NCBI GenBank assembly: GCA_034520965.1
Contig: JAXHMY010000003.1
Coordinates: 224,001-288,000 of the forward strand
DNA length: 64,000 nucleotides
Source of the DNA: Spirochaetia bacterium
GTDB taxonomy: Bacteria > Spirochaetota > Spirochaetia > DSM-16054 > Sediminispirochaetaceae
Direction of reading: 5' to 3'
Below are positions 33,621 through 43,973 of this stretch, piece by piece. The notes beneath the pieces are model-generated. The model was given only the letters and a program-made list of their open reading frames with translations. It had not been told where the DNA came from and made no database searches. Position 1 is the first letter of the stretch. The number at the start of each line of letters is the position of its first letter. The position numbers and the translations under genes are program-made.

Positions 33621-36326
33621 CTATTTCAGGGTTAAGTTGAACACGCCGTCCCAGCTTTCAGGGGGTGCCTTTTTCTTGAACTTGTTGCATCGACTAAGGT
33701 AAAACTGTGCAGGTCCGTCTTCCGGTTTGACCATTAGCACCTGACTAAAAAGCCCCTGTGCCGTGTCATAGTCACGCTGCTCAAAGGCCTCCAGACCTTC
33801 TTCAAAAATTTCCAAAGCTTCTCCCACATCCGGGTCAAGCTCACTCCTCTCATCTATCAGCTCGTACAAACGCACCGCCTCCTTTATGCCGACAACCCGA
33901 ACTCTGTCCAATTTTCTGCCTACAAACTCTCCGCCGGCTTCGAGAAATGTGGGTTCACTCGCCAGAATCCACGTTCCATACTGCTTGTTCACTCCCTCCA
34001 GCCGGGCAGCCAGATTTACCGAATTTCCCATGATGGTATAATCCATCTTGCGTACCGTTCCCATATTTCCCACTACCATTTCACCGGTATTTATGCCTAT
34101 CCGGGTAAAAACCGGCACCGGAGACAACCTTTCGGAAAGAAAGCGACTGTTCAGCTCCTCTTCCGCTTTTTTCATCCGTATTGCCGACCTGCAGGCTCGC
34201 GCCGCATGATCGGCGTAGTCAAGTGGAGCCCCAAAAAAGGAGATAATTGCATCACCCTCATATTTATCGATGGTTCCCTTCTGCTCTAAAATTACGTCAC
34301 TCATCTCGGATAAATACTGGTTCAGCAAACTCACCAGCTCAGTTGGATCAAGCTGCTCTGAGATAGTCGAAAAGCCCTTTACGTCGGTAAACAGGGCGGT
34401 CATATGCTTTTTGTCTCCACCGAGGGACAGCTTGTCCGGATCAGAGAGTAACTCGTTGATAACATCAGTCGATAAATAGTGACTGAAGGCGTTCTTAATG
34501 TACACCCTGTCCTTCGAAGTCTGAAGAAACTGAATCGCAGTCAGAAGTAAAAAGGTAAAAAATACGGAAGAGATCGGTATCAGAGGCGGTAAATATACCC
34601 CAGTTGTTACAAACGCACCCAGGTCCGCAGCAACAATCACCAATAAAAACAGAACACCAAAGAGCAGGGAATGAACCGGCACCATCCGTCTGATCACCAG
34701 AGTCACCAACAGTGCGGCAAAAAGTCCTATAACCATCGAATACCATTCGGGAAGCTCATCAAGAAAGTTCTCTTGAAGAATAGTATTTGCCAAAGAGGCA
34801 TGGGTACCTACGTTCATGTACTCTTCGTCGAAGGGAGTGACCCCGATATCTGTGGTGGAGGTACCCACAAAACCAATGATAATGAAGGAATCGGGAATAG
34901 CCTCGGATAGGCGCGCCCGTGAGGATGCGAGGTTTTCCTGCACGTCCCTCGCGGCCGAAAAAACTTCGGGAATCTGGCCCCTTATTTCCCGGTACTCCTC
35001 CGCCGTCTGCTCATCCAGTTGACCAGAGGAGAGTATCCTGCCTATCTCAGAATCGATGGAAGACTCCGCCGGACCCTTCAAGAAGGCCTCGACCCCGGGA
35101 AAAAACATACGACGTACTTCAATGTACTCGTCCATCAATTCTGGATCTCCCCCCTCCAGTACCTCCTGTTTGATATCTTCCGCATAATTATAGGCATCCA
35201 TAAGTGGAAAATCCCCTTCGTGGTATGCAAGATAGCCCGCCTCTTCCATTATATTCAAATTTTCAATTAATCGCTGTTCAAGCTCGCGGTTATATACCAG
35301 TTCGTAGTAACTAAGGTGGCGAAAACTCTCTTCATAGCTCTCTTGCGGCCAATTGATCAGCACGTGCTGTGTCTCGGTGAGGGGTATCCTTATATCCTTC
35401 GTTCCTCTATCCGGATGCTCGGCATCCCTCAGAGTAATAGCATGCTTGTCCAACTCTACTTCCGGATTCCCCAGCCACTGCAACAGAGGTGCAAAAGCCA
35501 GTTGCGGAAGATATTTGCCCTCGTATTCTATCAGCAGGTCTATCCGTCGCCGCACCCCGTCCGGGTCGACCTTTACGTTGGGAAAACCCGCACCCCGGGC
35601 CCGGCTCAGAATTGGGTAGATCGCAGGCCGTATCCCTTCTGCTTTGCGCAGTCCGGGATTCTCTCCCGCTACCTGTGTAAGGGCAACATGCTCCTCGGCG
35701 TATTCTATAAGGGTTTCATTCACCGAGGTATCTTCCTCGGAGAGGGCGGATGTGGTAAAAAAGCTTCTCCCGTTCAAGTGAGCCATTTTGCCGAAGTAGG
35801 CATCGTTATCCCGCTCTATATCCCGAACCTTTGCAAGCAGCGTGCTTCGAGAATTTTCGGTAAGCTGCTGCAGATCATCAATATAGCCTTCAGCCTCATC
35901 CAGGGGAATCTGCCCGGCCGCCAGGGCATTGAAAAGTGCGTCGATGTTATTTTGTACCTCTCGAAACTCCTGTTGAAACAGCTCGGGAATCTCCTTGCGT
36001 AAAACCTGTGAGTTGACCCCCAGGGGACTCTCCTCGGTATACTCGATATCAAAGACTATATGCCCGGCATCGAACTCCCGTAAAAGCAGCAGGCCGTTGG
36101 CCATAATGTCCCTGCTCCAGGGCCACACCCCTACCTCGGAAATAGCTAAATCGTCCACATCAAGCAGCAGCAGACGTTCATCCTCCTCAATTTCCGGTCG
36201 AATGGCCAGAAAAAGATCGTACAACCTGTTTTCAAAGGTCTGATAAACCGGCAGATAGCTTATAAGCGAAAACAGTAGAGTAATTAGTACGGGAATAAAA
36301 AAAATATATAAAGTTTTACCGCGCAT
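33621..36326 (-). CDS. CHASE2-domain class III adenylate cyclase
   Basis: CHASE2 motifs (WPWSR, FDIEY, DPDGVRRR, GTHASLANTIL), 3 TM helices, then the cyclase domain FTDVKGFS, DKYEGD, DYTIMGNSVNLAARLE (Lys/Asp, ATP-type), and a TPR-like tail. Confidence 0.92.
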   Translation of the reverse strand: MRGKTLYIFFIPVLITLLFSLISYLPVYQTFENRLYDLFLAIRPEIEEDERLLLLDVDDLAISEVGVWPWSRDIMANGLLLLREFDAGHIVFDIEYTEESPLGVNSQVLRKEIPELFQQEFREVQNNIDALFNALAAGQIPLDEAEGYIDDLQQLTENSRSTLLAKVRDIERDNDAYFGKMAHLNGRSFFTTSALSEEDTSVNETLIEYAEEHVALTQVAGENPGLRKAEGIRPAIYPILSRARGAGFPNVKVDPDGVRRRIDLLIEYEGKYLPQLAFAPLLQWLGNPEVELDKHAITLRDAEHPDRGTKDIRIPLTETQHVLINWPQESYEESFRHLSYYELVYNRELEQRLIENLNIMEEAGYLAYHEGDFPLMDAYNYAEDIKQEVLEGGDPELMDEYIEVRRMFFPGVEAFLKGPAESSIDSEIGRILSSGQLDEQTAEEYREIRGQIPEVFSAARDVQENLASSRARLSEAIPDSFIIIGFVGTSTTDIGVTPFDEEYMNVGTHASLANTILQENFLDELPEWYSMVIGLFAALLVTLVIRRMVPVHSLLFGVLFLLVIVAADLGAFVTTGVYLPPLIPISSVFFTFLLLTAIQFLQTSKDRVYIKNAFSHYLSTDVINELLSDPDKLSLGGDKKHMTALFTDVKGFSTISEQLDPTELVSLLNQYLSEMSDVILEQKGTIDKYEGDAIISFFGAPLDYADHAARACRSAIRMKKAEEELNSRFLSERLSPVPVFTRIGINTGEMVVGNMGTVRKMDYTIMGNSVNLAARLEGVNKQYGTWILASEPTFLEAGGEFVGRKLDRVRVVGIKEAVRLYELIDERSELDPDVGEALEIFEEGLEAFEQRDYDTAQGLFSQVLMVKPEDGPAQFYLSRCNKFKKKAPPESWDGVFNLTLK

Positions 36327-36508: not shown

Positions 36509-36973
36509 ATGAGAAAAAAGCTCTGTCCGCATCTTTTAGTCGGCTTTCTTTTTGTCCTTTCCGTTTCTCATCTTTGTGCTCAGTCGAACGAAACCCTCGA
36601 CCGCTTTTTAGCGCAGGAAAGGGCCGTGTTCGGATATTCGGCCTATATGGTTCTGACTGCAGCAGGAGAACTGCCGGAGGAGGCTTCCCCGGAGGAGGCG
36701 GCTGCGGCGGTAAGCCGGATGGGATGGAAGAACAGCTTGTCGGCAAGTGACGATCTCATCAACTTAGGAGAGTATTCCTACTTGTTAATGAAGGCCTTCG
36801 ATGTACGCGGTGGCCTAATGTACACGCTGTTTCCCGGCCCCCGGTATGCCGCCCGGGAACTGAAGTACCTGCAGTGTATTCCCGGTAAGTCCACTCCCGG
36901 ACGGTCTATAAGCGGTACCGATGCGGTTCAAATTCTCGGTCGTGTTTTAGAGTGGAAGGAGGAGCGCTCATGA
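36509..36973 (+). CDS. Exported hypothetical protein
   Basis: SD GGAGG, signal peptide ending LCA-Q; 154 aa. Confidence 0.7.
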   Translation: MRKKLCPHLLVGFLFVLSVSHLCAQSNETLDRFLAQERAVFGYSAYMVLTAAGELPEEASPEEAAAAVSRMGWKNSLSASDDLINLGEYSYLLMKAFDVRGGLMYTLFPGPRYAARELKYLQCIPGKSTPGRSISGTDAVQILGRVLEWKEERS

Positions 36974-38268
36974 AAACCCGTGTTTCTGCCATAGGGGGCT
37001 TAATCCTGCTATTCTTCTTTTTAACCCCTCCCTTATTTTCCGAAACTGTAACCGACTGGGGAGGTTTTTTGCAGAGCACCAGCAGGGCTGCCATTCAACC
37101 GGAATACGAGTTTGACCAGGCTGTGCAAACAGGCCTTTGGCTGAGTACCGATTTTTCTGATAATTTCGGTCTCTATGCCCGGGGATCCTACATTTACAAT
37201 GAAGACCGTCCGTATTTTGCAGATATAGAGAACCTGTATGCCCGTGGGAGCTCACTGCTCGGCTCAGAGGGTGAGGAATATCTTGTTCGCTACTCCCTGG
37301 GCAGATTCCGTTTTTCCGAGTTTACCGGCTATGTACTTAACCACAACCTGGACGGTTTTCGGCTGAACTTCGAACTGCCGGCCCTCTCTTTTGAGGCCTC
37401 CGCCGGTTACACCGGCCTTACCTTTGTGCCGAGTTCATCCATATTAGTTACTCAGAGCGATTTCGACCTGCAGGAAAATGTAGCTGATCACGGGTATGAG
37501 CTTAGCTCCCCAAAGCTCATTGAAACCCTGAAAATGACTATTCCCGCAGTTGCCTTTGAGCAGGAGCTGATTCTTAACGTAGTGCTTCAGCAGGATCTGC
37601 AGCCGGAAGAAAACTTTACAAACACGGATGACCGTATACACAGTGAACACATCGGGTTCGGATTACGGGGTGGTCTTGCGCCGTCGCTGTACCAGAACCT
37701 GTTTCTTTACCTGAACCGCGGCCACGGCAAATACGCTACCGCGGCATCGTTGTTTGGCGGCGGCCTTAGCTACTACAATCAGGACTTCCTTTTTACCAGA
37801 GTTCGAGTAAGGGGGCTCTACTCCTCAGGAGATAACGATTACAACTTCTTTTACGGCGGGTACGGGGGAGAGAGAATTTCCAGCCACTTTATTACACTGT
37901 CCTCCTCTCCTCAATTCGGAATTGTTTTTTCCCCTCAAATTGGAAATATGTCCCTTGGTGAGATATCATTTTCTATGAGGCCTTTCTCCAAGACGAATAG
38001 CCGTATCCTTGAAAAGTTCCAAACAACCTTGGCGGCAATTACCTTCTTTAGAAACACCGGAGGAGTTATTTCGGAAGCGGGCATCGACCTTACATCCGAT
38101 AAATCGTATCTGGGAAGCGAAATTGACCTGTCCTTGCAATTCAGGCCCCTTTCCGATGTGGGCATAACCCTTTCCGGAGGCTTATTTTTTCCGAACGAAA
38201 AAGTTTTCATGGAAGCCTATGACAACATGAAGTCGGTGGCCCGCCTTGATGCTTCTTTCAGGTTTTAA
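36970..38268 (+). CDS. Putative outer-membrane beta-barrel protein
   Basis: Signal peptide, alternating amphipathic beta strands, C-terminal ARLDASFRF ending in Phe. Confidence 0.7.
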   Translation: MKTRVSAIGGLILLFFFLTPPLFSETVTDWGGFLQSTSRAAIQPEYEFDQAVQTGLWLSTDFSDNFGLYARGSYIYNEDRPYFADIENLYARGSSLLGSEGEEYLVRYSLGRFRFSEFTGYVLNHNLDGFRLNFELPALSFEASAGYTGLTFVPSSSILVTQSDFDLQENVADHGYELSSPKLIETLKMTIPAVAFEQELILNVVLQQDLQPEENFTNTDDRIHSEHIGFGLRGGLAPSLYQNLFLYLNRGHGKYATAASLFGGGLSYYNQDFLFTRVRVRGLYSSGDNDYNFFYGGYGGERISSHFITLSSSPQFGIVFSPQIGNMSLGEISFSMRPFSKTNSRILEKFQTTLAAITFFRNTGGVISEAGIDLTSDKSYLGSEIDLSLQFRPLSDVGITLSGGLFFPNEKVFMEAYDNMKSVARLDASFRF

Positions 38269-38281
38269 AGTGAGGATCAAA

Positions 38282-38971
38282 ATGAGAGAATATAAAACAA
38301 TACCAATTATTTTGCTGCTTATTGCTGTGCTTCTGTTGCTCGCCGCACCGGTCTACTCGGTGAATGCAGTAATAGAGGAAACAAAGGGCAAAGTAGAGCT
38401 CAAAGCCATCGGGGGCAGCTGGCGGAAAGCGGAAGTCGGTATGGAGATTGGGCTCGGAACCACCGTTTCAACGGGTTTTAATGCCAACGCGAAAATTGCT
38501 ATCGGTGACACCGTACTGGAGGTAAAACCGCTTACCCGCATGGAGTTGGAGGAGTTAATAGAGAAAGAGGGGACCATCGACACCGAACTCAACCTAAAAG
38601 TCGGCAAGATAAAGGCAAATGTGCGTTCCTCCGCAGGGCTTCAGAACAACTTCAAGCTGCGCAGCGCCCAATCTACCGCAGCGGTGCGCGGTACGGTTTT
38701 TGTATACGACGGGTACACCTTAAGTGTGGAGCAAGGGCGAGTATCCCTAAGCAACAAGCTCGGGCAGGTACGCTCGGTAGGCAGTGGCGAACAGAGCAGT
38801 ACCGACGGCTATTCCGTACCTTCTCATGTGGAGGATGCTATTTCTTCGGTTTTTAATCTTGATCCCGGCGCGTTGGATGAGGATGCGGTTGTGGAGTTTT
38901 TAGAACAAGAGTATCCCGAATATGCAACCTTAATTCTTAAGCTGTATTGGGATTTTGGAGGAGTGGAATGA
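38282..38971 (+). CDS. Exported FecR-domain protein
   Basis: Signal peptide; GTTVSTGFNANAKI, LNLKVGKI, STAAVRGTVF, LSVEQGRV. Confidence 0.85.
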   Translation: MREYKTIPIILLLIAVLLLLAAPVYSVNAVIEETKGKVELKAIGGSWRKAEVGMEIGLGTTVSTGFNANAKIAIGDTVLEVKPLTRMELEELIEKEGTIDTELNLKVGKIKANVRSSAGLQNNFKLRSAQSTAAVRGTVFVYDGYTLSVEQGRVSLSNKLGQVRSVGSGEQSSTDGYSVPSHVEDAISSVFNLDPGALDEDAVVEFLEQEYPEYATLILKLYWDFGGVE

Positions 38972-40338
38972 ACAAGCAGAATTTCAATTTTGGCCGGAGA
39001 ACTTATGCACGTCCCGCCGCAGTACTTATTATGTTCCTGCTGCTGAGTGTTGTTTCTTGTTATGTAGAACCCCGGGCCGGGGCAACGGTTACTCCCCACC
39101 TTAGCTTCACGACTGCCTCGAGGGGCTTTGGAGATGTGCTCGGCAGCATAAAGCTCGATATTACCGGGCCCGGTATTGACCAGCAGTGGTTCTTCTCTGA
39201 GGAGGAGGACAGTATCGTCATTTCCCTGCCCGAGGCTGATAATGTGCGCTTTGAGGTTGAAGCCCAACTGGATACCCTGGGCGGCACCTACACCGGCCCC
39301 GTACTCTCCTACGGCGGCGTCCTGTATGCCGACCTGGTTGCTGGAAAGTCAATCAACCTAAACTTCAACATGGGCCCCTACGAAACCAAAATACTGGTCC
39401 CGGATTATTCTTTAAGTAAGTTAATACAGTTGAAAAACATGTCTATAAGTGAAAATAATCCGGTTTCTCCTGATTGGGAAGAGTCCGACCTGTCATTTTT
39501 CGAACTAGGCGCTCCATGGGATATAGAGATAGATAACTTGGGACAAATATGGATAGCTAGCGATAATTCGCTAAGTGCAATATACGAAGTACCAATAACT
39601 TATGACGAGTCAGAGTTACCTGAACTTTTGAATATTTACACAACTCCTATTTATTCACTCGCCTTCGACCGCCAAAATAACTACTTGTATTATATTCTTG
39701 ATGAGGGAAATTCCTTTTATAGCATCAATAGGATTACAACTGATTTTGATATATTAGACGTAGCTATTACCGATATTACAGAAATCAGTTCTACTGTCGT
39801 TTCTGCTACTAATACAATTTATCCATTTGGATTAGCAGTAGATGATGAGGGGTTTATCTATTTTACCGTTAATGTTGGGTCTACAACACCTCAATGGAAC
39901 CTCTATAAAATACATCCTGATTCACCGGATACAATAGAAGCATCTACCACAGAAATTACTACCAACCCCGATGCATCTCCTTACGACTATCCCGACCTAC
40001 TCTACAAGGAGGGGCATATATATGTGACGAACCGGGCAGGGCCCGACGGAGAACAAATCCTCAAACTGAACAAAGACCTTGTGCTGGTGGGCAGCTTCGG
40101 AGTTGCTGCAACTGAATTAGGAACCACTGTAGAGGGCGAGTTTTTCGGCCCTTCCCGCTTCCTTGCTTCTACCAACAAGAAAATCTATGTGATTGATGAA
40201 GCTATCGATGCACCTATAGGAGATATTACCTCAAATGAGACAATATGAAGTGACCCCCGTGTTTGCAAAATCGTGGATTAGCCTGCAAAATGGTAAAAAC
40301 ACAATGGCAAACACGCCACATACAAACAGGAGGCCACT

Positions 40339-41436
40339 ATGAACAGTGTAATTTATGTAGGAATGGATGTCCACAAGGAGACGGTATTCATCGTCGGGTA
40401 TAAGAATGGCGAACAGGTCCCATCGATAGTCGTTCAGAAGAAAAACAGGGAAAGTGAGCTGCGCAAATATTTTAAGAAGCTCCAGGAAAAGGGTGAGCTT
40501 CTGTGCTGCTATGAAGCAGGGCCAAGCGGTTACAGTACCTATCGGATGCTCGAAGGTATGGGCATTGCCTGTCTTGTTGCAGCCCCGGGACTGATTCCAA
40601 AAAAACCATCAGAGCGAATAAAAACCGACAAACGGGACGCCGACATGCTTGCCCGTAATTTGCGTTCCGGACAGTTGACAGGGGTTCACATTCCCACCAG
40701 AGCCGATGAGGCGGTGCGTGAGTTTCTGCACGTCAGGGATGATTACAAAGACGAGCAGAGACGCTACAAGCAGAAAATTCTCAGTCTTCTGCTTCGTCAT
40801 GGTCTGATCTACCGTGATGGGGATAATTGGACAGGAAAACACCGACTGTGGATTAAGAAAGCCATCGCAGAGCTCAACTCATTGCAGAAAGAGACTGTAA
40901 AGGAGTACCTGGGGCATCTGGACTACATCACTGAAAATATTAAACGAATCGACCAGCGCATTGAAGCCCTTGCCTCTGAAGGGCGCTATAGGGAAAAAGT
41001 GAAAAGGCTGATGGCCATTAAGGGGATTGGAACCTTTACCGCGTTATCAATCATTGCCGAAATAAGTGATTTTCGGCGATTTGCCAAGCCCTCGCAGTTC
41101 ATGAGTTATCTTGGTTTGGTACCGGCTGAACACTCCAGTGGAGAACGTCGTCGTCAGAACGGTATTACAAAATCAGGAAATAAGCGTTTGAGGCGCCTGT
41201 TGGTAGAAAGTGCCTGGCATTGTCGCACCTATGATCCCTCCTCAAAGCGACTGATAAAACGAAGACGAGAAGTAGATCCTCAGGCAAGAGCGTATGCCGA
41301 TAAAGCAGGGAAAAGACTTTCGCGGCGATATCAGCACCTTCTGTTTACAGGAAAACCTTCACAGAAGGTTGCTACGGCAGTTGCACGTGAGCTTTGCGGT
41401 TTTATTTGGGGAATAATGAGAGAACAAACAACGTAG
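40339..41436 (+). CDS. IS110 family DEDD recombinase/transposase
   Basis: VGMDVHK, CYEAG, KTDKRDA (DEDD), KGIG..TA, YLGLVPAEHSSG (catalytic Ser), GNKRLRRLLVESAW. Confidence 0.97.
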   Translation: MNSVIYVGMDVHKETVFIVGYKNGEQVPSIVVQKKNRESELRKYFKKLQEKGELLCCYEAGPSGYSTYRMLEGMGIACLVAAPGLIPKKPSERIKTDKRDADMLARNLRSGQLTGVHIPTRADEAVREFLHVRDDYKDEQRRYKQKILSLLLRHGLIYRDGDNWTGKHRLWIKKAIAELNSLQKETVKEYLGHLDYITENIKRIDQRIEALASEGRYREKVKRLMAIKGIGTFTALSIIAEISDFRRFAKPSQFMSYLGLVPAEHSSGERRRQNGITKSGNKRLRRLLVESAWHCRTYDPSSKRLIKRRREVDPQARAYADKAGKRLSRRYQHLLFTGKPSQKVATAVARELCGFIWGIMREQTT

Positions 41437-41456
41437 AGGTTTAACTGAGTTTTGAA

Positions 41457-41667
41457 ACCGAGGGGTAGAATGGATAGAGGAATACGAGAAGAAGCGAAGG
41501 AGAATCCTCGAGCTATTCTGAAGGCCCTCTTTTTGGTAGGAGGAATCCTTGAATTGAGACAGAGGCAAGCTCCCGACGATTACATTGCACTGCAGGTAAC
41601 CAATCCGCGAATATCAGTCTGTACATCGACGGTTGCATGTATTCCTCTATCTTTTTCTCCTCTCGGT
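41457..41667 (+). ncRNA. Candidate bridge/seek RNA in the IS 3' non-coding region
   Basis: Perfect 13-bp stem GATAGAGGAATAC(41473-41485)/GTATTCCTCTATC(41639-41651), extended by ACCGAG/CTCGGT. It encloses two stem-internal-loop arms whose loop strands match the element junctions. Confidence 0.7.
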
Positions 41668-41857
41668 CTTATAAAGAAGGGGGTACTATAAACTTTTACT
41701 ATAGAATACTTGACAAGGGTCACAACATATCAGAATAGTAAGTTTTGATACCGACTTCGGCGGGTGGGATACATATATGCCGCAGGGCGTGGACAATGTC
41801 GACATTTTTAGCTTCTATTATTAAATGAACTAATAGAGTTACCATATAGTCTTTTCC

Positions 41858-41890
41858 ACCGCGGTACCTTAGGGGCCGCGGTTTTTTCTT
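41858..41890 (+). terminator. Intrinsic terminator after the lipoprotein remnant
   Basis: ACCGCGG...CCGCGGT stem followed by a T run. Confidence 0.7.
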
Positions 41891-42000
41891 GCCTTTTTCG
41901 GTCGCTTTATTCATTAATAGAAAATTACCTTGACTCACCCCACCTCTGTAAGTACCCTTAAAGAGAGAATCTTTTTAAAGAATCAAACAAAGGAGGACAT

Positions 42001-42984
42001 ATGTCCGAACGTGACGTATCACCACCGGGACTACCTTTTTCGATAAAACCGAAATTTATAGTAACCGTGGTAATTATAGTTGTGGTCATAGCCGTGGTCA
42101 TGTCGAGTTTCTTCGTCGTTGACCAAACTGAGCAAGCAGTAGTGCTTAGGTTCGGTAAGGTGAACAGAATTGTCGGCCCGGGCCTGCAGTTTAAGGTTCC
42201 CCTGGGAATCGAAAAGAACTACAACGTAGCGACCCAGAGAGTTCAAAAAATGGAGTTTGGCTTTCGCACCCAGCAGGCAAGTATCAATACCACCTACTCC
42301 GGCGCCGACTTCCCCGAAGAGTCGATTATGCTGACCGGAGACCTTAATATAATCGATGTCGAATGGATCATTCAGTATCGGATAAGCGAGCCTGTAGATT
42401 GGCTGTTTAATGTGGAGTTTCGAGAACAGACTCTACGCGACATAAGCCAGTCGATTATCAATCAGCTGGTAGGCGACCGGGCGATACTGAATGTAATCGG
42501 TTCAGAACGAGCAAGCATCGAGCAGCAGGGCCAGGACAAAATGCAGGAGCGCTTTGACGATTACGGTCTTGGTGTCACGGTTACCACGGTCAAACTGCGA
42601 AACATCGTACCTCCGCGGGGCGAAGTACAAGACGCATTTGAAGACGTAAACCGTGCTGTTCAGGATATGAACCGTTTTATCAATGAAGGAAAAGAGGCTT
42701 ACAACCAGGAAATACCGAAAGCCCGCGGCCAGGCCCAGCAGCTGATTCAAGAAGCCCAGGGATATGCAGCCGAACGTGTAAATAATTCAGAAGGTGATGT
42801 AGCCCGCTTTGTATCGGTCCTCGACCAGTATGAGTTGAGTCCCGAGGTAACCCGCACCCGTCTCTACATCGAAACCCTTGAAGCGCTCTTCCAGGAAGAA
42901 GAAGGTACCGACCTGATCGACCGGGGACTGGAGAACTTTATTCCCTTTAAAGGCCTGCCGACAGCACAAGGAGGCACACAGTGA
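42001..42984 (+). CDS. hflK: FtsH protease modulator HflK
   Basis: N-terminal TM, SPFH domain, MLTGDLNIIDVEW, VQDAFEDV, PEVTRTRLYIETL. Confidence 0.95.
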   Translation: MSERDVSPPGLPFSIKPKFIVTVVIIVVVIAVVMSSFFVVDQTEQAVVLRFGKVNRIVGPGLQFKVPLGIEKNYNVATQRVQKMEFGFRTQQASINTTYSGADFPEESIMLTGDLNIIDVEWIIQYRISEPVDWLFNVEFREQTLRDISQSIINQLVGDRAILNVIGSERASIEQQGQDKMQERFDDYGLGVTVTTVKLRNIVPPRGEVQDAFEDVNRAVQDMNRFINEGKEAYNQEIPKARGQAQQLIQEAQGYAAERVNNSEGDVARFVSVLDQYELSPEVTRTRLYIETLEALFQEEEGTDLIDRGLENFIPFKGLPTAQGGTQ

Positions 42985-43973
42985 AAAAATTAGTAACAAC
43001 TTTAGTAGTGCTGCTTATTATCGTGGTAGTATTCGTGCTCCTAGGCCCGTTTTACATTGTAGAACAGGGTGAACAGGCCGTTGTAACCCGCTTTGGTAAG
43101 ATAGTAACTACAAATGTCAATCCGGGCCTCAAGTTTAAAGTACCGGTTATCGACAACGTAGTAAAATACTCTAAAAAAATACTGAGTTGGGACGGAGATG
43201 CACAACGGGTGCCTACCGCGGAAAACCAGTTTATCTGGGTTGATGCCACGGCCCGCTGGAAAATTGCCGACCCCCAGAAGTTTTACGAGGCGGTTTCTAC
43301 CCTTGAACAGGGCTGGGCCCGGCTTGACGACGTTATAGATTCGACCATCCGTACGGTCATTACCAGCAACAATCTGCGGGAAGCAGTCCGTAACACCAAC
43401 ATCATCAACGAGATGGAGGCCACCACGGAAATTCTGCAGCAGCAGGATGAAGAGGTGGACGAAGAAGAGCTTCGTGAGCTGACCCAAACTGAGAGATCGT
43501 ATGAAACAGTGAATCGGGGTCGTGAAGAACTCTCCCAGGAAATGTTCGAGTTAGCGGCTGAATTAACCCCCGACTACGGCATTGAGCTGGTTGATATCAT
43601 CATGCGTCAAATACGCTACTCCGACGACCTTACCGAAAGTGTCTACAGTCGTATGATTAAAGAGCGAAACCAGATCGCCGAAGCATACCGCTCCTACGGA
43701 CAGGGGAAAAAGGCCGAGTGGCTTGGTAGACTTGAAAACGAACGTAAAACAGTCCTCTCGGAAGCGTACCAGGAGTCTGAGGGTATTCGCGGTGAGGCCG
43801 ATGCCGAGGCAACCCTGATCTACGCTGAGGCTTATGAGCAGGACCCGGAGTTCTTTGAGTTCTGGCGTTCGATCGAATCGTACCGCAAAACCATACCCAA
43901 GTTTAAGAAAACCCTTACCACCGACATGGACTACTTTAAGTATTTGTACAATGAAGACGGAACTGTCGAATAA
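42981..43973 (+). CDS. hflC: FtsH protease modulator HflC
   Basis: SPFH domain, RMIKER, EADAEAT.IYAEAY.QDPEFFEFWRS; coupled to hflK. Confidence 0.95.
   Translation: MKKLVTTLVVLLIIVVVFVLLGPFYIVEQGEQAVVTRFGKIVTTNVNPGLKFKVPVIDNVVKYSKKILSWDGDAQRVPTAENQFIWVDATARWKIADPQKFYEAVSTLEQGWARLDDVIDSTIRTVITSNNLREAVRNTNIINEMEATTEILQQQDEEVDEEELRELTQTERSYETVNRGREELSQEMFELAAELTPDYGIELVDIIMRQIRYSDDLTESVYSRMIKERNQIAEAYRSYGQGKKAEWLGRLENERKTVLSEAYQESEGIRGEADAEATLIYAEAYEQDPEFFEFWRSIESYRKTIPKFKKTLTTDMDYFKYLYNEDGTVE

Follow-up and report, generated by a model that had tools for sequence, protein, structure and literature searches.

An IS110-family element interrupts a host gene

The window, a stretch of 64,000 nucleotides from a Spirochaetia bacterium (assembly GCA_034520965.1, contig JAXHMY010000003.1, positions 224,001 to 288,000), contains an insertion sequence at 40240–41733, 1,494 bp long counting one AG core. 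The element breaks a host gene and carries an intact recombinase gene followed by a region from which a guide RNA is predicted. The locus is laid out as follows.

38947–40237, + strand: interrupted host gene without a Pfam family, broken near its 3′ end (ORF list; homologues)
40233–40237, + strand: left target flank AAATG, common to all three genomic copies (copy comparison)
40238–40239, + strand: AG core at the left junction (copy comparison; single core from empty MITE sites)
40240–40338, + strand: short left end, 99 bp, from the left junction to the recombinase start
40243–40256, + strand: left subterminal inverted repeat, 3 bp inside the core, 12/14 against the right repeat
40339–41436, + strand: intact IS110-family DEDD recombinase, 365 amino acids (PF01548 and PF02371; NF033542)
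41457–41667, + strand: predicted bridge/seek RNA with a long closing stem and two arms (fold, covariation, covariance model)
41717–41730, + strand: right subterminal inverted repeat, 1 bp inside the core, 12/14 against the left repeat
41732–41733, + strand: AG core at the right junction (copy comparison)
41734–41738, + strand: right target flank AATAG, common to the three copies (copy comparison; loose contig end at 41738)
41732–41824, + strand: severed last 30 codons of the host gene (homologue comparison)

In a profile search the recombinase matched NF033542 at 252.6 bits (cut-off 140), and it has the PF01548 and PF02371 domains, the DEDD residues and the serine that characterize the IS110 family. 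Residues D10, E59, D97, D100 and S267 are kept in 34 homologues and aligned to IS621, and the serine lies within a G--P----SG motif. The roles of these residues are presumed from IS621.

The right end of the element is 297 bp long and contains 41457–41667. Relatives have similar ends, with medians of about 100–102 bp on the left (47 relatives) and about 303 bp on the right. A short left end and a long right end holding the RNA is the layout of the IS1111 group, and the 14-bp subterminal inverted repeat, identical at 12 of 14 positions, falls within that group's range of 7–17 bp. Repeats of at least 10/14 were present in 47 of 47 clusters with both ends, partly by selection (the relatives' right ends were those giving the best match between repeats, and a single locus with 6/14 was left out). 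Neither this repeat nor the further genomic copies of the element had featured in the original prediction, which was made from the window's letters. The source genome holds three full copies and one fragment. All three copies begin after AAATG-AG and finish before AATAG, once the noisy end of the C9 copy is corrected with a contig of run X1. The nearest named relative locus is in a Spirochaetales genome. The fragment, 156 bp at G000 C2:545716–545869, comprises the gene end and the first RNA half, cut at 41552, and abuts other DNA; a loose end in run X1 bears this out.

Both strands of loop 1 covary with the target flanks

We gathered 139 loci of relatives, of which 133 remained after dropping 5 duplicates and 1 without a match. 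A right end was called in 95 of the 133 and both ends in 72; after removal of two loci with non-credible ends, the final set comprised 93 loci in 58 clusters at 90% identity. The predicted guides of loop 1 are as follows.

41511–41519, + strand: 5′ target guide AGCTATT-CT, complementary to the core and right flank on the top strand (covariation)
41552–41561, + strand: 3′ target guide (AA)TTG-AG, identical to the left flank and core, pairing with the bottom strand (covariation)

The 5′ guide had been placed at 41513–41521, as the reverse complement of 41730–41738. That match is exact, and its last two letters, GA (41520–41521), pair with the element's own end. At 41511–41519 the guide matches the MITE site described below at 9/9 positions and the window's own flank at 7/9; by chance, this 9-mer would occur 0.54 times over the two strands of the 64 kb and about 0.001 times in a 211-nt single strand. 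For the 3′ guide, the reported 9/10 match of 41552–41561 to 40233–40242 was reproduced. The ACA that follows it equals the first bases of the element, an arrangement that would be handshake-like. The base after the core on this strand is A in 58/58 clusters.

When every RNA column was scanned blindly against every flank position, the six best of 8,208 tests fell on the two guide strands of loop 1. We then counted agreement, using nothing but the RNA and the element end to place the core. The 5′ strand agreed with right-flank positions 1–5 in 207 of 265 cells (53 of 58 clusters), compared with 84.2 ± 8.1 and a maximum of 118 in 20,000 shuffles. The 3′ strand agreed with left-flank positions 1–3 in 107 of 132 cells (44 of 58 clusters), compared with 47.8 ± 5.3 and a maximum of 73 on shuffling. 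Clustering at 80% gave 156/195 for the 5′ guide (57 shuffled) and 79/99 for the 3′ guide (36 shuffled). Left-flank positions 4–7 covaried weakly or not at all (13/44, 24/44, 7/44 with 25 G·T, and 20/44), and left-flank position 3 is mismatched with the guide in all three copies of the element.

The relatives are not independent, and cluster and pair tests lessen but do not remove the effect of kinship. There were 36 different 5-mers among their 5′ guides. In 25 sister pairs with differing 5′ guides, taken from a transposase tree in which 79 of 81 elements were placed, the guide fitted its own flank better in 21, worse in none and equally well in 4. One relative, L034, with 97% amino-acid identity, differs by one letter of the 5′ guide, and the matching flank letter has changed too. 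The original prediction had named loop strands invariant across homologues with unrelated flanks as contrary evidence; both strands instead covary with the flanks, position by position. By covariation we showed that the predicted loop 1 spells both sides of the insertion site, its 5′ strand being complementary to the core and about 5–7 bases to the right, and its 3′ strand identical to about 3–5 bases to the left plus the core. This is the behaviour of a structured RNA with a target loop.

The position of the core in the 5′ loop strand varies between members, with three main registers, and the 3′ strand has a single register. A move of the core to GA where a member's right flank begins with A, which we also considered, is unsupported, since the registers of the 3′ guide and the donor stay in place.

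Loop 2 spells one end of the element

41611–41617, + strand: 3′ donor guide ATATC-AG, repeating the right end of the element (covariation with the right end)

This strand is identical to 41727–41733, as first noticed in the window, and it also covaries with the element end. At the variable position, strand and right end agree in 57 of 58 clusters, and in 8 of the 9 cases in which that letter is not C, which occur in several branches (shuffle mean 0.43, maximum 4). These comparisons show the predicted 3′ strand of loop 2 to spell the right end. The second donor guide fits poorly, a caveat already attached to the original prediction. Its 5′ strand fits the left end only over ATTG (41584–41587). 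Among relatives, a full match of this strand to the left end occurs in 2 of 47 clusters, and most of the others match over ATTG alone, although ATTG and the left end have changed together in L084. Past the core, the letters of loop 2 do not track the target; together with the varying positions of the core in the loop, this leaves the IS621 handshake pattern half present.

The poor fit of the 5′ donor strand could also mean that loop 1 is a true target guide and arm 2 mainly a protein-binding scaffold, with the ATATCAG copy secondary and the element ends read by the protein through the subterminal repeats. Those repeats are long in all 47 two-ended clusters, partly by selection, and a short seekRNA suffices for ISEc11 according to the accessible text of PMC11187229. 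Such a division of labour is possible but unlikely, given a 3′ donor strand that tracks the right end even in most of its departures from C, and the joint change of ATTG and left end in L084.

The two-arm fold is conserved

The predicted RNA has the following parts.

41457–41485 with 41639–41667, + strand: closing stem, about 29 bp (fold)
41499–41573, + strand: arm 1, predicted to bind the target, with an 11 × 11 nt internal loop (comparative analysis)
41499–41502/41570–41573, 41506–41509/41562–41565 and 41521–41524/41547–41550, + strand: arm-1 helices (comparative analysis)
41574–41631, + strand: arm 2, predicted to bind the donor, with helices 41574–41580/41625–41631 and 41591–41596/41605–41609

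All strings quoted in the original prediction were found at their positions, including the 13 perfect base pairs of the closing stem (41473–41485 with 41639–41651). The region 41457–41667 folded at −77.2 kcal/mol (z = −4.27), and none of 200 shuffles was as good; the median z in relatives was −3.25 (first 30 of the 58 representatives). The single-sequence minimum-free-energy structure retains the closing stem and arm 2, whose stem is present as proposed except for one A·A mismatch within it. Arm 1 is drawn differently in that structure, and the proposed drawing of it was recovered by comparative analysis.

We aligned 46 of the 58 representatives, setting aside 5 that carry long inserts and 7 whose protein identity is below 43%. 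The helices originally proposed were paired in 90.3% of cells, and 12 of their 24 pairs had double changes, a level reached in none of 500 shuffles. Slid structures were 33–49% paired. The innermost arm-1 helix was only 72% paired, in part through alignment register. By these comparisons the predicted two-arm fold is conserved. A covariance model of the 46 sequences gave 29 matches across 37 sources, including IS1533-like loci and ISEc45, and no match in IS4321 (L153). A search of 40200–41950 for terminator-like matches on the + strand returned none, and Rfam had no real match to 40000–42100 (best E 0.8). Among the 150 of 450 candidates that were scored in the genome, whose assembly is 86% complete, there were no solo guide RNAs, only the three copies.

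Because the region is known here from sequence alone, and its opposite strand also folds significantly (z = −2.9), the guide might act in cis as DNA, as in IS200/IS605-like elements, or the flanks might have been copied into the element, with no RNA in either case. However, one-sided G·U-type changes fit the helices of the + strand, the guides lie 170–220 bp inside the end within a conserved two-loop fold, and members of the family were shown to use RNA in the accessible parts of PMC11208160 and PMC11187229; we consider both readings very unlikely. The stem does follow the stop codon, and the matches in one copy are short, but a transcription terminator or mRNA-stabilizing hairpin with chance flank matches has a negligible probability, being refuted by the covariation over 36 guide 5-mers, the sister pairs and the blind scan; the empty terminator search also speaks against it. 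We conclude that 41457–41667 is, with high probability, the bridge/seek guide RNA of an intact RNA-guided IS110-family element that has the IS1111 layout and belongs to the IS1533/ISEc45/ISCARN28 branch.

Candidate promoter motif, RNA run and circle joints

41710–41715, + strand: TTGACA, 18 nt before the end, candidate −35 box of a circle-junction promoter (motif; conservation)

TTGAC occurs 16–20 nt before the element end in 52 of 58 clusters. Among 22 listed runs, one is RNA, from a relative, and its contigs are of low depth. A contig of this run spans 41439–41681 at depth 5.7, with pieces of the transposase at 3.6–3.7 and neighbouring host genes higher; we give these depths no weight because contigs hide ends, strand and level, and DNA may be present. 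There was no circle joint among the contig joints of four runs, and such contigs cannot prove absence. In the window, TTGACA forms a promoter-like site with the right flank (41710–41739, 18-nt spacer). This site faces an hflK/hflC-like pair at 42001–43973, with Band_7 in the first ORF; the intervening DNA holds a G+C hairpin and T run at 41857–41887.

The preferred target is the end of a MITE

The left flank common to the C2 and C9 copies is a dispersed repeat found at 65 places, 32 of them of at least 100 bp. It is a MITE of 136–144 bp with ends CAGC(G/A/T)ATTCT, two long inner palindromes and 9-bp duplications, which are intact in 15 copies. We take the CAG ends and 9-bp duplications to recall the ISMae2 group. 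Examples in G000, out of at least 32 near-full copies, are the following.

C2:217479–217620: MITE
C1:103548–103689: MITE
C3:302276–302419: MITE

Among further genomes, the MITE end motif was present in 3 of 9 from the genus and in 0 of 7 from other genera. A search for an autonomous parent of the MITE found none with a matching 9-bp duplication within 6 kb or 3 kb, and one match on a viral contig (L151). At G000 C1:911664–911681, two MITE ends joined back to back form an 18-bp perfect palindrome, a minimal derivative flanked by apparent 9-bp duplications.

Two of the three genomic copies of the element lie inside the terminal repeat of a MITE of about 142 bp. On C2, an intact 9-bp duplication encloses MITE and element together (1,636 = 142 + 1,494 bp), and empty MITE copies carry one AG. 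This length and the single AG of empty sites establish insertion with a single core, and the MITE copies have no target duplication beyond these 2 bp. The empty sites also bear out the AG/CT core proposed at the outset. The C2 and C9 insertions are clean, and they are not one locus, as each lies in its own MITE copy with its own duplication. The reading frame at the window site had raised the idea of a target with two AG and an element with none, which the MITE copies rule out, as do empty alleles with 7 bases between the flanks.

The genome has nine unoccupied AATGAGAATAG sites, of which six are MITE ends, so that sequence alone predicts two-thirds of insertions to fall in MITEs. The commonest perfect target of the predicted guide in the genome was shown by sequence comparison to be the terminal inverted repeat of the ~142-bp MITE. 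The original prediction had read the target from the window; that site is a looser, genic copy of the preferred one, the MITE end AAATG-AG-AATAGCT. One of the three copies lies in a gene without a hairpin, so insertion does not require the MITE hairpin (n = 1). A single letter separates the three repeat variants, and it corresponds to guide position 41514. This position is T here, A in L034 and G in contigs of runs X3 and X21, which do not show the right flank.

Five bases are missing at the window copy

Homologues of the interrupted gene in 9 of 16 family genomes run about 30 residues further. Uninterrupted alleles of relatives have 7 bases between the flank motifs (L145; joints in X3 and X21), compared with 2 after a clean insertion; 5 bases are therefore missing at the window copy, which a clean single-core insertion does not explain. 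The codons to either side suggest an ancestral host allele with two AG five bases apart. The loss may have arisen from two guide strands acting on different cores, or a tandem-repeat unit may have slipped out afterwards. An assembly error is unlikely, as contigs of run X1, which may be the assembled sample itself, cross both junctions without differences. We found no case of a deletion upon insertion like this one in the accessible parts of recent mechanism preprints.

The gene run at 36509–40248 includes a FecR-domain protein (38246–38971) and two proteins without a Pfam family. It lies downstream of the point where an adenylate/guanylate-cyclase-like gene begins on the opposite strand (33621–36326, by motif only).

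Other targets and defective copies among relatives

In 7 of 43 clusters, the rejoined flanks resemble the start of an integron attC site (AAC, 5 bases, GTT), going by the attC consensus. These loci (L071, L074, L075, L082, L083, L087 and L101; also L020, L026, L029, L031 and L033 of G286) look like a second, independent attC-targeting branch beside ISKpn4/ISPa25. The right side of the G286 copies ends in AA, and the guide reads TT there. IS1533-like copies in G077 (L015, L027, L030 and L032) have a common right flank that is AGCCTGTC-like and continues as the conserved end of some other repeat or element; the target of IS1533 was left unresolved in the accessible text of PMC11187229. Two defective relatives are candidates for movement in trans. 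One, L003 (G006:C32), is located in a short MITE, with arm 1 and half of arm 2 deleted between two AATCC(T/G)CG motifs. The other, L001, keeps both ends and has lost most of the gene and the whole RNA.

Proposed mechanism

By analogy with IS621 and ISEc11, the element would circularize, and its joined ends would create a promoter (TTGACA, 17 nt, GACAAT) driving transcription of the recombinase and the RNA. The RNA would be processed and then bound by the recombinase, with loop 1 opening the target and loop 2 the joined ends. The RuvC-like DEDD sites and the conserved serine would cut beside the cores and exchange strands, giving insertion in one orientation without duplication beyond the core. 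Recognition of the subterminal repeats by the protein probably compensates for the weak left-end guide. In loop 1, the bases that follow the core may have a handshake role, to judge from the accessible text of PMC13626964.

A bolder proposal is that the branch is a mechanistically distinct bridge recombinase, with a donor loop for one end, a multi-register 5′ guide, split AG cores 5 bp apart whose use removes the intervening bases, and guides drifting between three MITE repeat variants. We regard this combination as rather doubtful. Its split-core component is suggested by the 5-bp loss at the window copy. If true, the guide drift would document the evolution of a guide in step with another mobile element.

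Comparison with known systems

The suggestion that the recombinase is possibly uncharacterized holds for this element and, as far as bench work goes, for its clade. It does not hold for the RNA class, its 3′ location, the strand order or a predicted RNA for ISCARN28, which are already in print. The guidance mechanism has been known since 2024, and the element is very probably a well-supported new example of it, not a new system. A literature search that left subscription papers mostly aside found no bench tests of the IS1533/ISEc45/ISCARN28 branch.

The closest named kin are IS1533 (Leptospira), ISEc45, ISCARN28 and ISSfr2 (ISfinder, IS110 family), all of which differ from the element in guide and target. 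ISEc45 is the best named protein match (44% over 98%). Loci L014, L015 and L126 (42%) share end motifs and, by eye, read like the IS1533 protein in the available supplement of PMC11187229, in which IS1533 is counted as IS1111 family. With the covariance model, the 3′ ends of these three IS1533-like loci scored 75–85 bits and that of ISEc45 30–38 bits. ISCARN28 has, by eye, the same protein motifs as our recombinase, and it is one of six elements with a predicted bridge RNA in the legend of Extended Data Fig. 10c of PMC11208160. On protein comparison the recombinase belongs with IS1533/ISEc45; at less than 50% protein identity to named members, the element is new.

The IS1111 layout is described in the accessible parts of PMC11208160 and PMC11187229, the former predicting bridge RNAs in 93% of IS1111 elements, many with atypical donor loops. 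ISEc11, ISKpn4, ISPa11, ISPst6 and IS4321/IS5075 (accessible text of PMC11187229) likewise have a 3′ non-coding region and subterminal inverted repeats. Their seekRNAs place the complement of the top strand before the match to the bottom strand, the same order as here, and natural reprogramming between close relatives is reported there as well. IS4321/IS5075 also targets the terminal repeat of another mobile element, as far as the accessible account goes, and its protein is only 25–27% identical over 76% of the protein. The tight IS1111 protein cluster in that source is 330–350 amino acids long, compared with 365 here, and our recombinase lies outside this narrow IS1111/ISEc11/IS4321 cluster of full-length relation.

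IS621 and IS622 (ISCro4), as covered in the accessible parts of PMC11208160 and PMC13626964 and in PDB 8wt6 and 9t56, have the same DEDD and serine recombinase, the same order of target loop then donor loop, and a CT/AG core in all guide strands; their loop-1 3′ strand likewise continues with donor-like bases. Protein similarity to IS621 is only E 2e-8. Whereas their RNA is 5′, here it is 3′ and the polarity of the guides relative to the gene is reversed. The element further differs in its long subterminal repeats, in the ~29-bp stem closing the whole RNA and in its one poorly fitting donor strand. A TIGR-Tas assignment was rejected, as NF052498 scored 36.3 bits (cut-off 100) and there is a single RNA inside an insertion sequence and no TIGR array.

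The IS1111 of Coxiella likewise prefers dispersed palindromic MITE/REP sequences, with 20 of 21 copies in QMITE2 in the accessible text of PMC5896051, and ISPpu10 has a stem-loop target (10.64898/2026.03.19.712850, in part), with a role for the hairpin there that the copies here do not indicate. In contrast to both, the site here is the terminal inverted repeat itself, spelled by the predicted guide, and one copy lies outside a hairpin. RNA guidance, a 3′ RNA and homing into MITEs or terminal repeats are thus already known biology. New here are the MITE-end insertions of this element, the 9/9 match of its predicted guide and the relatives' guide letters that match other variants of the repeat. 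The element adds a cleanly mapped, intact set of recombinase, guide and target with natural single-letter reprogramming between 97%-identical relatives. As published orthologue screening was limited to the IS621-like clade in the accessible part of 10.1101/2025.05.14.653916, the element and the 58-cluster guide table offer material for testing a different scaffold.
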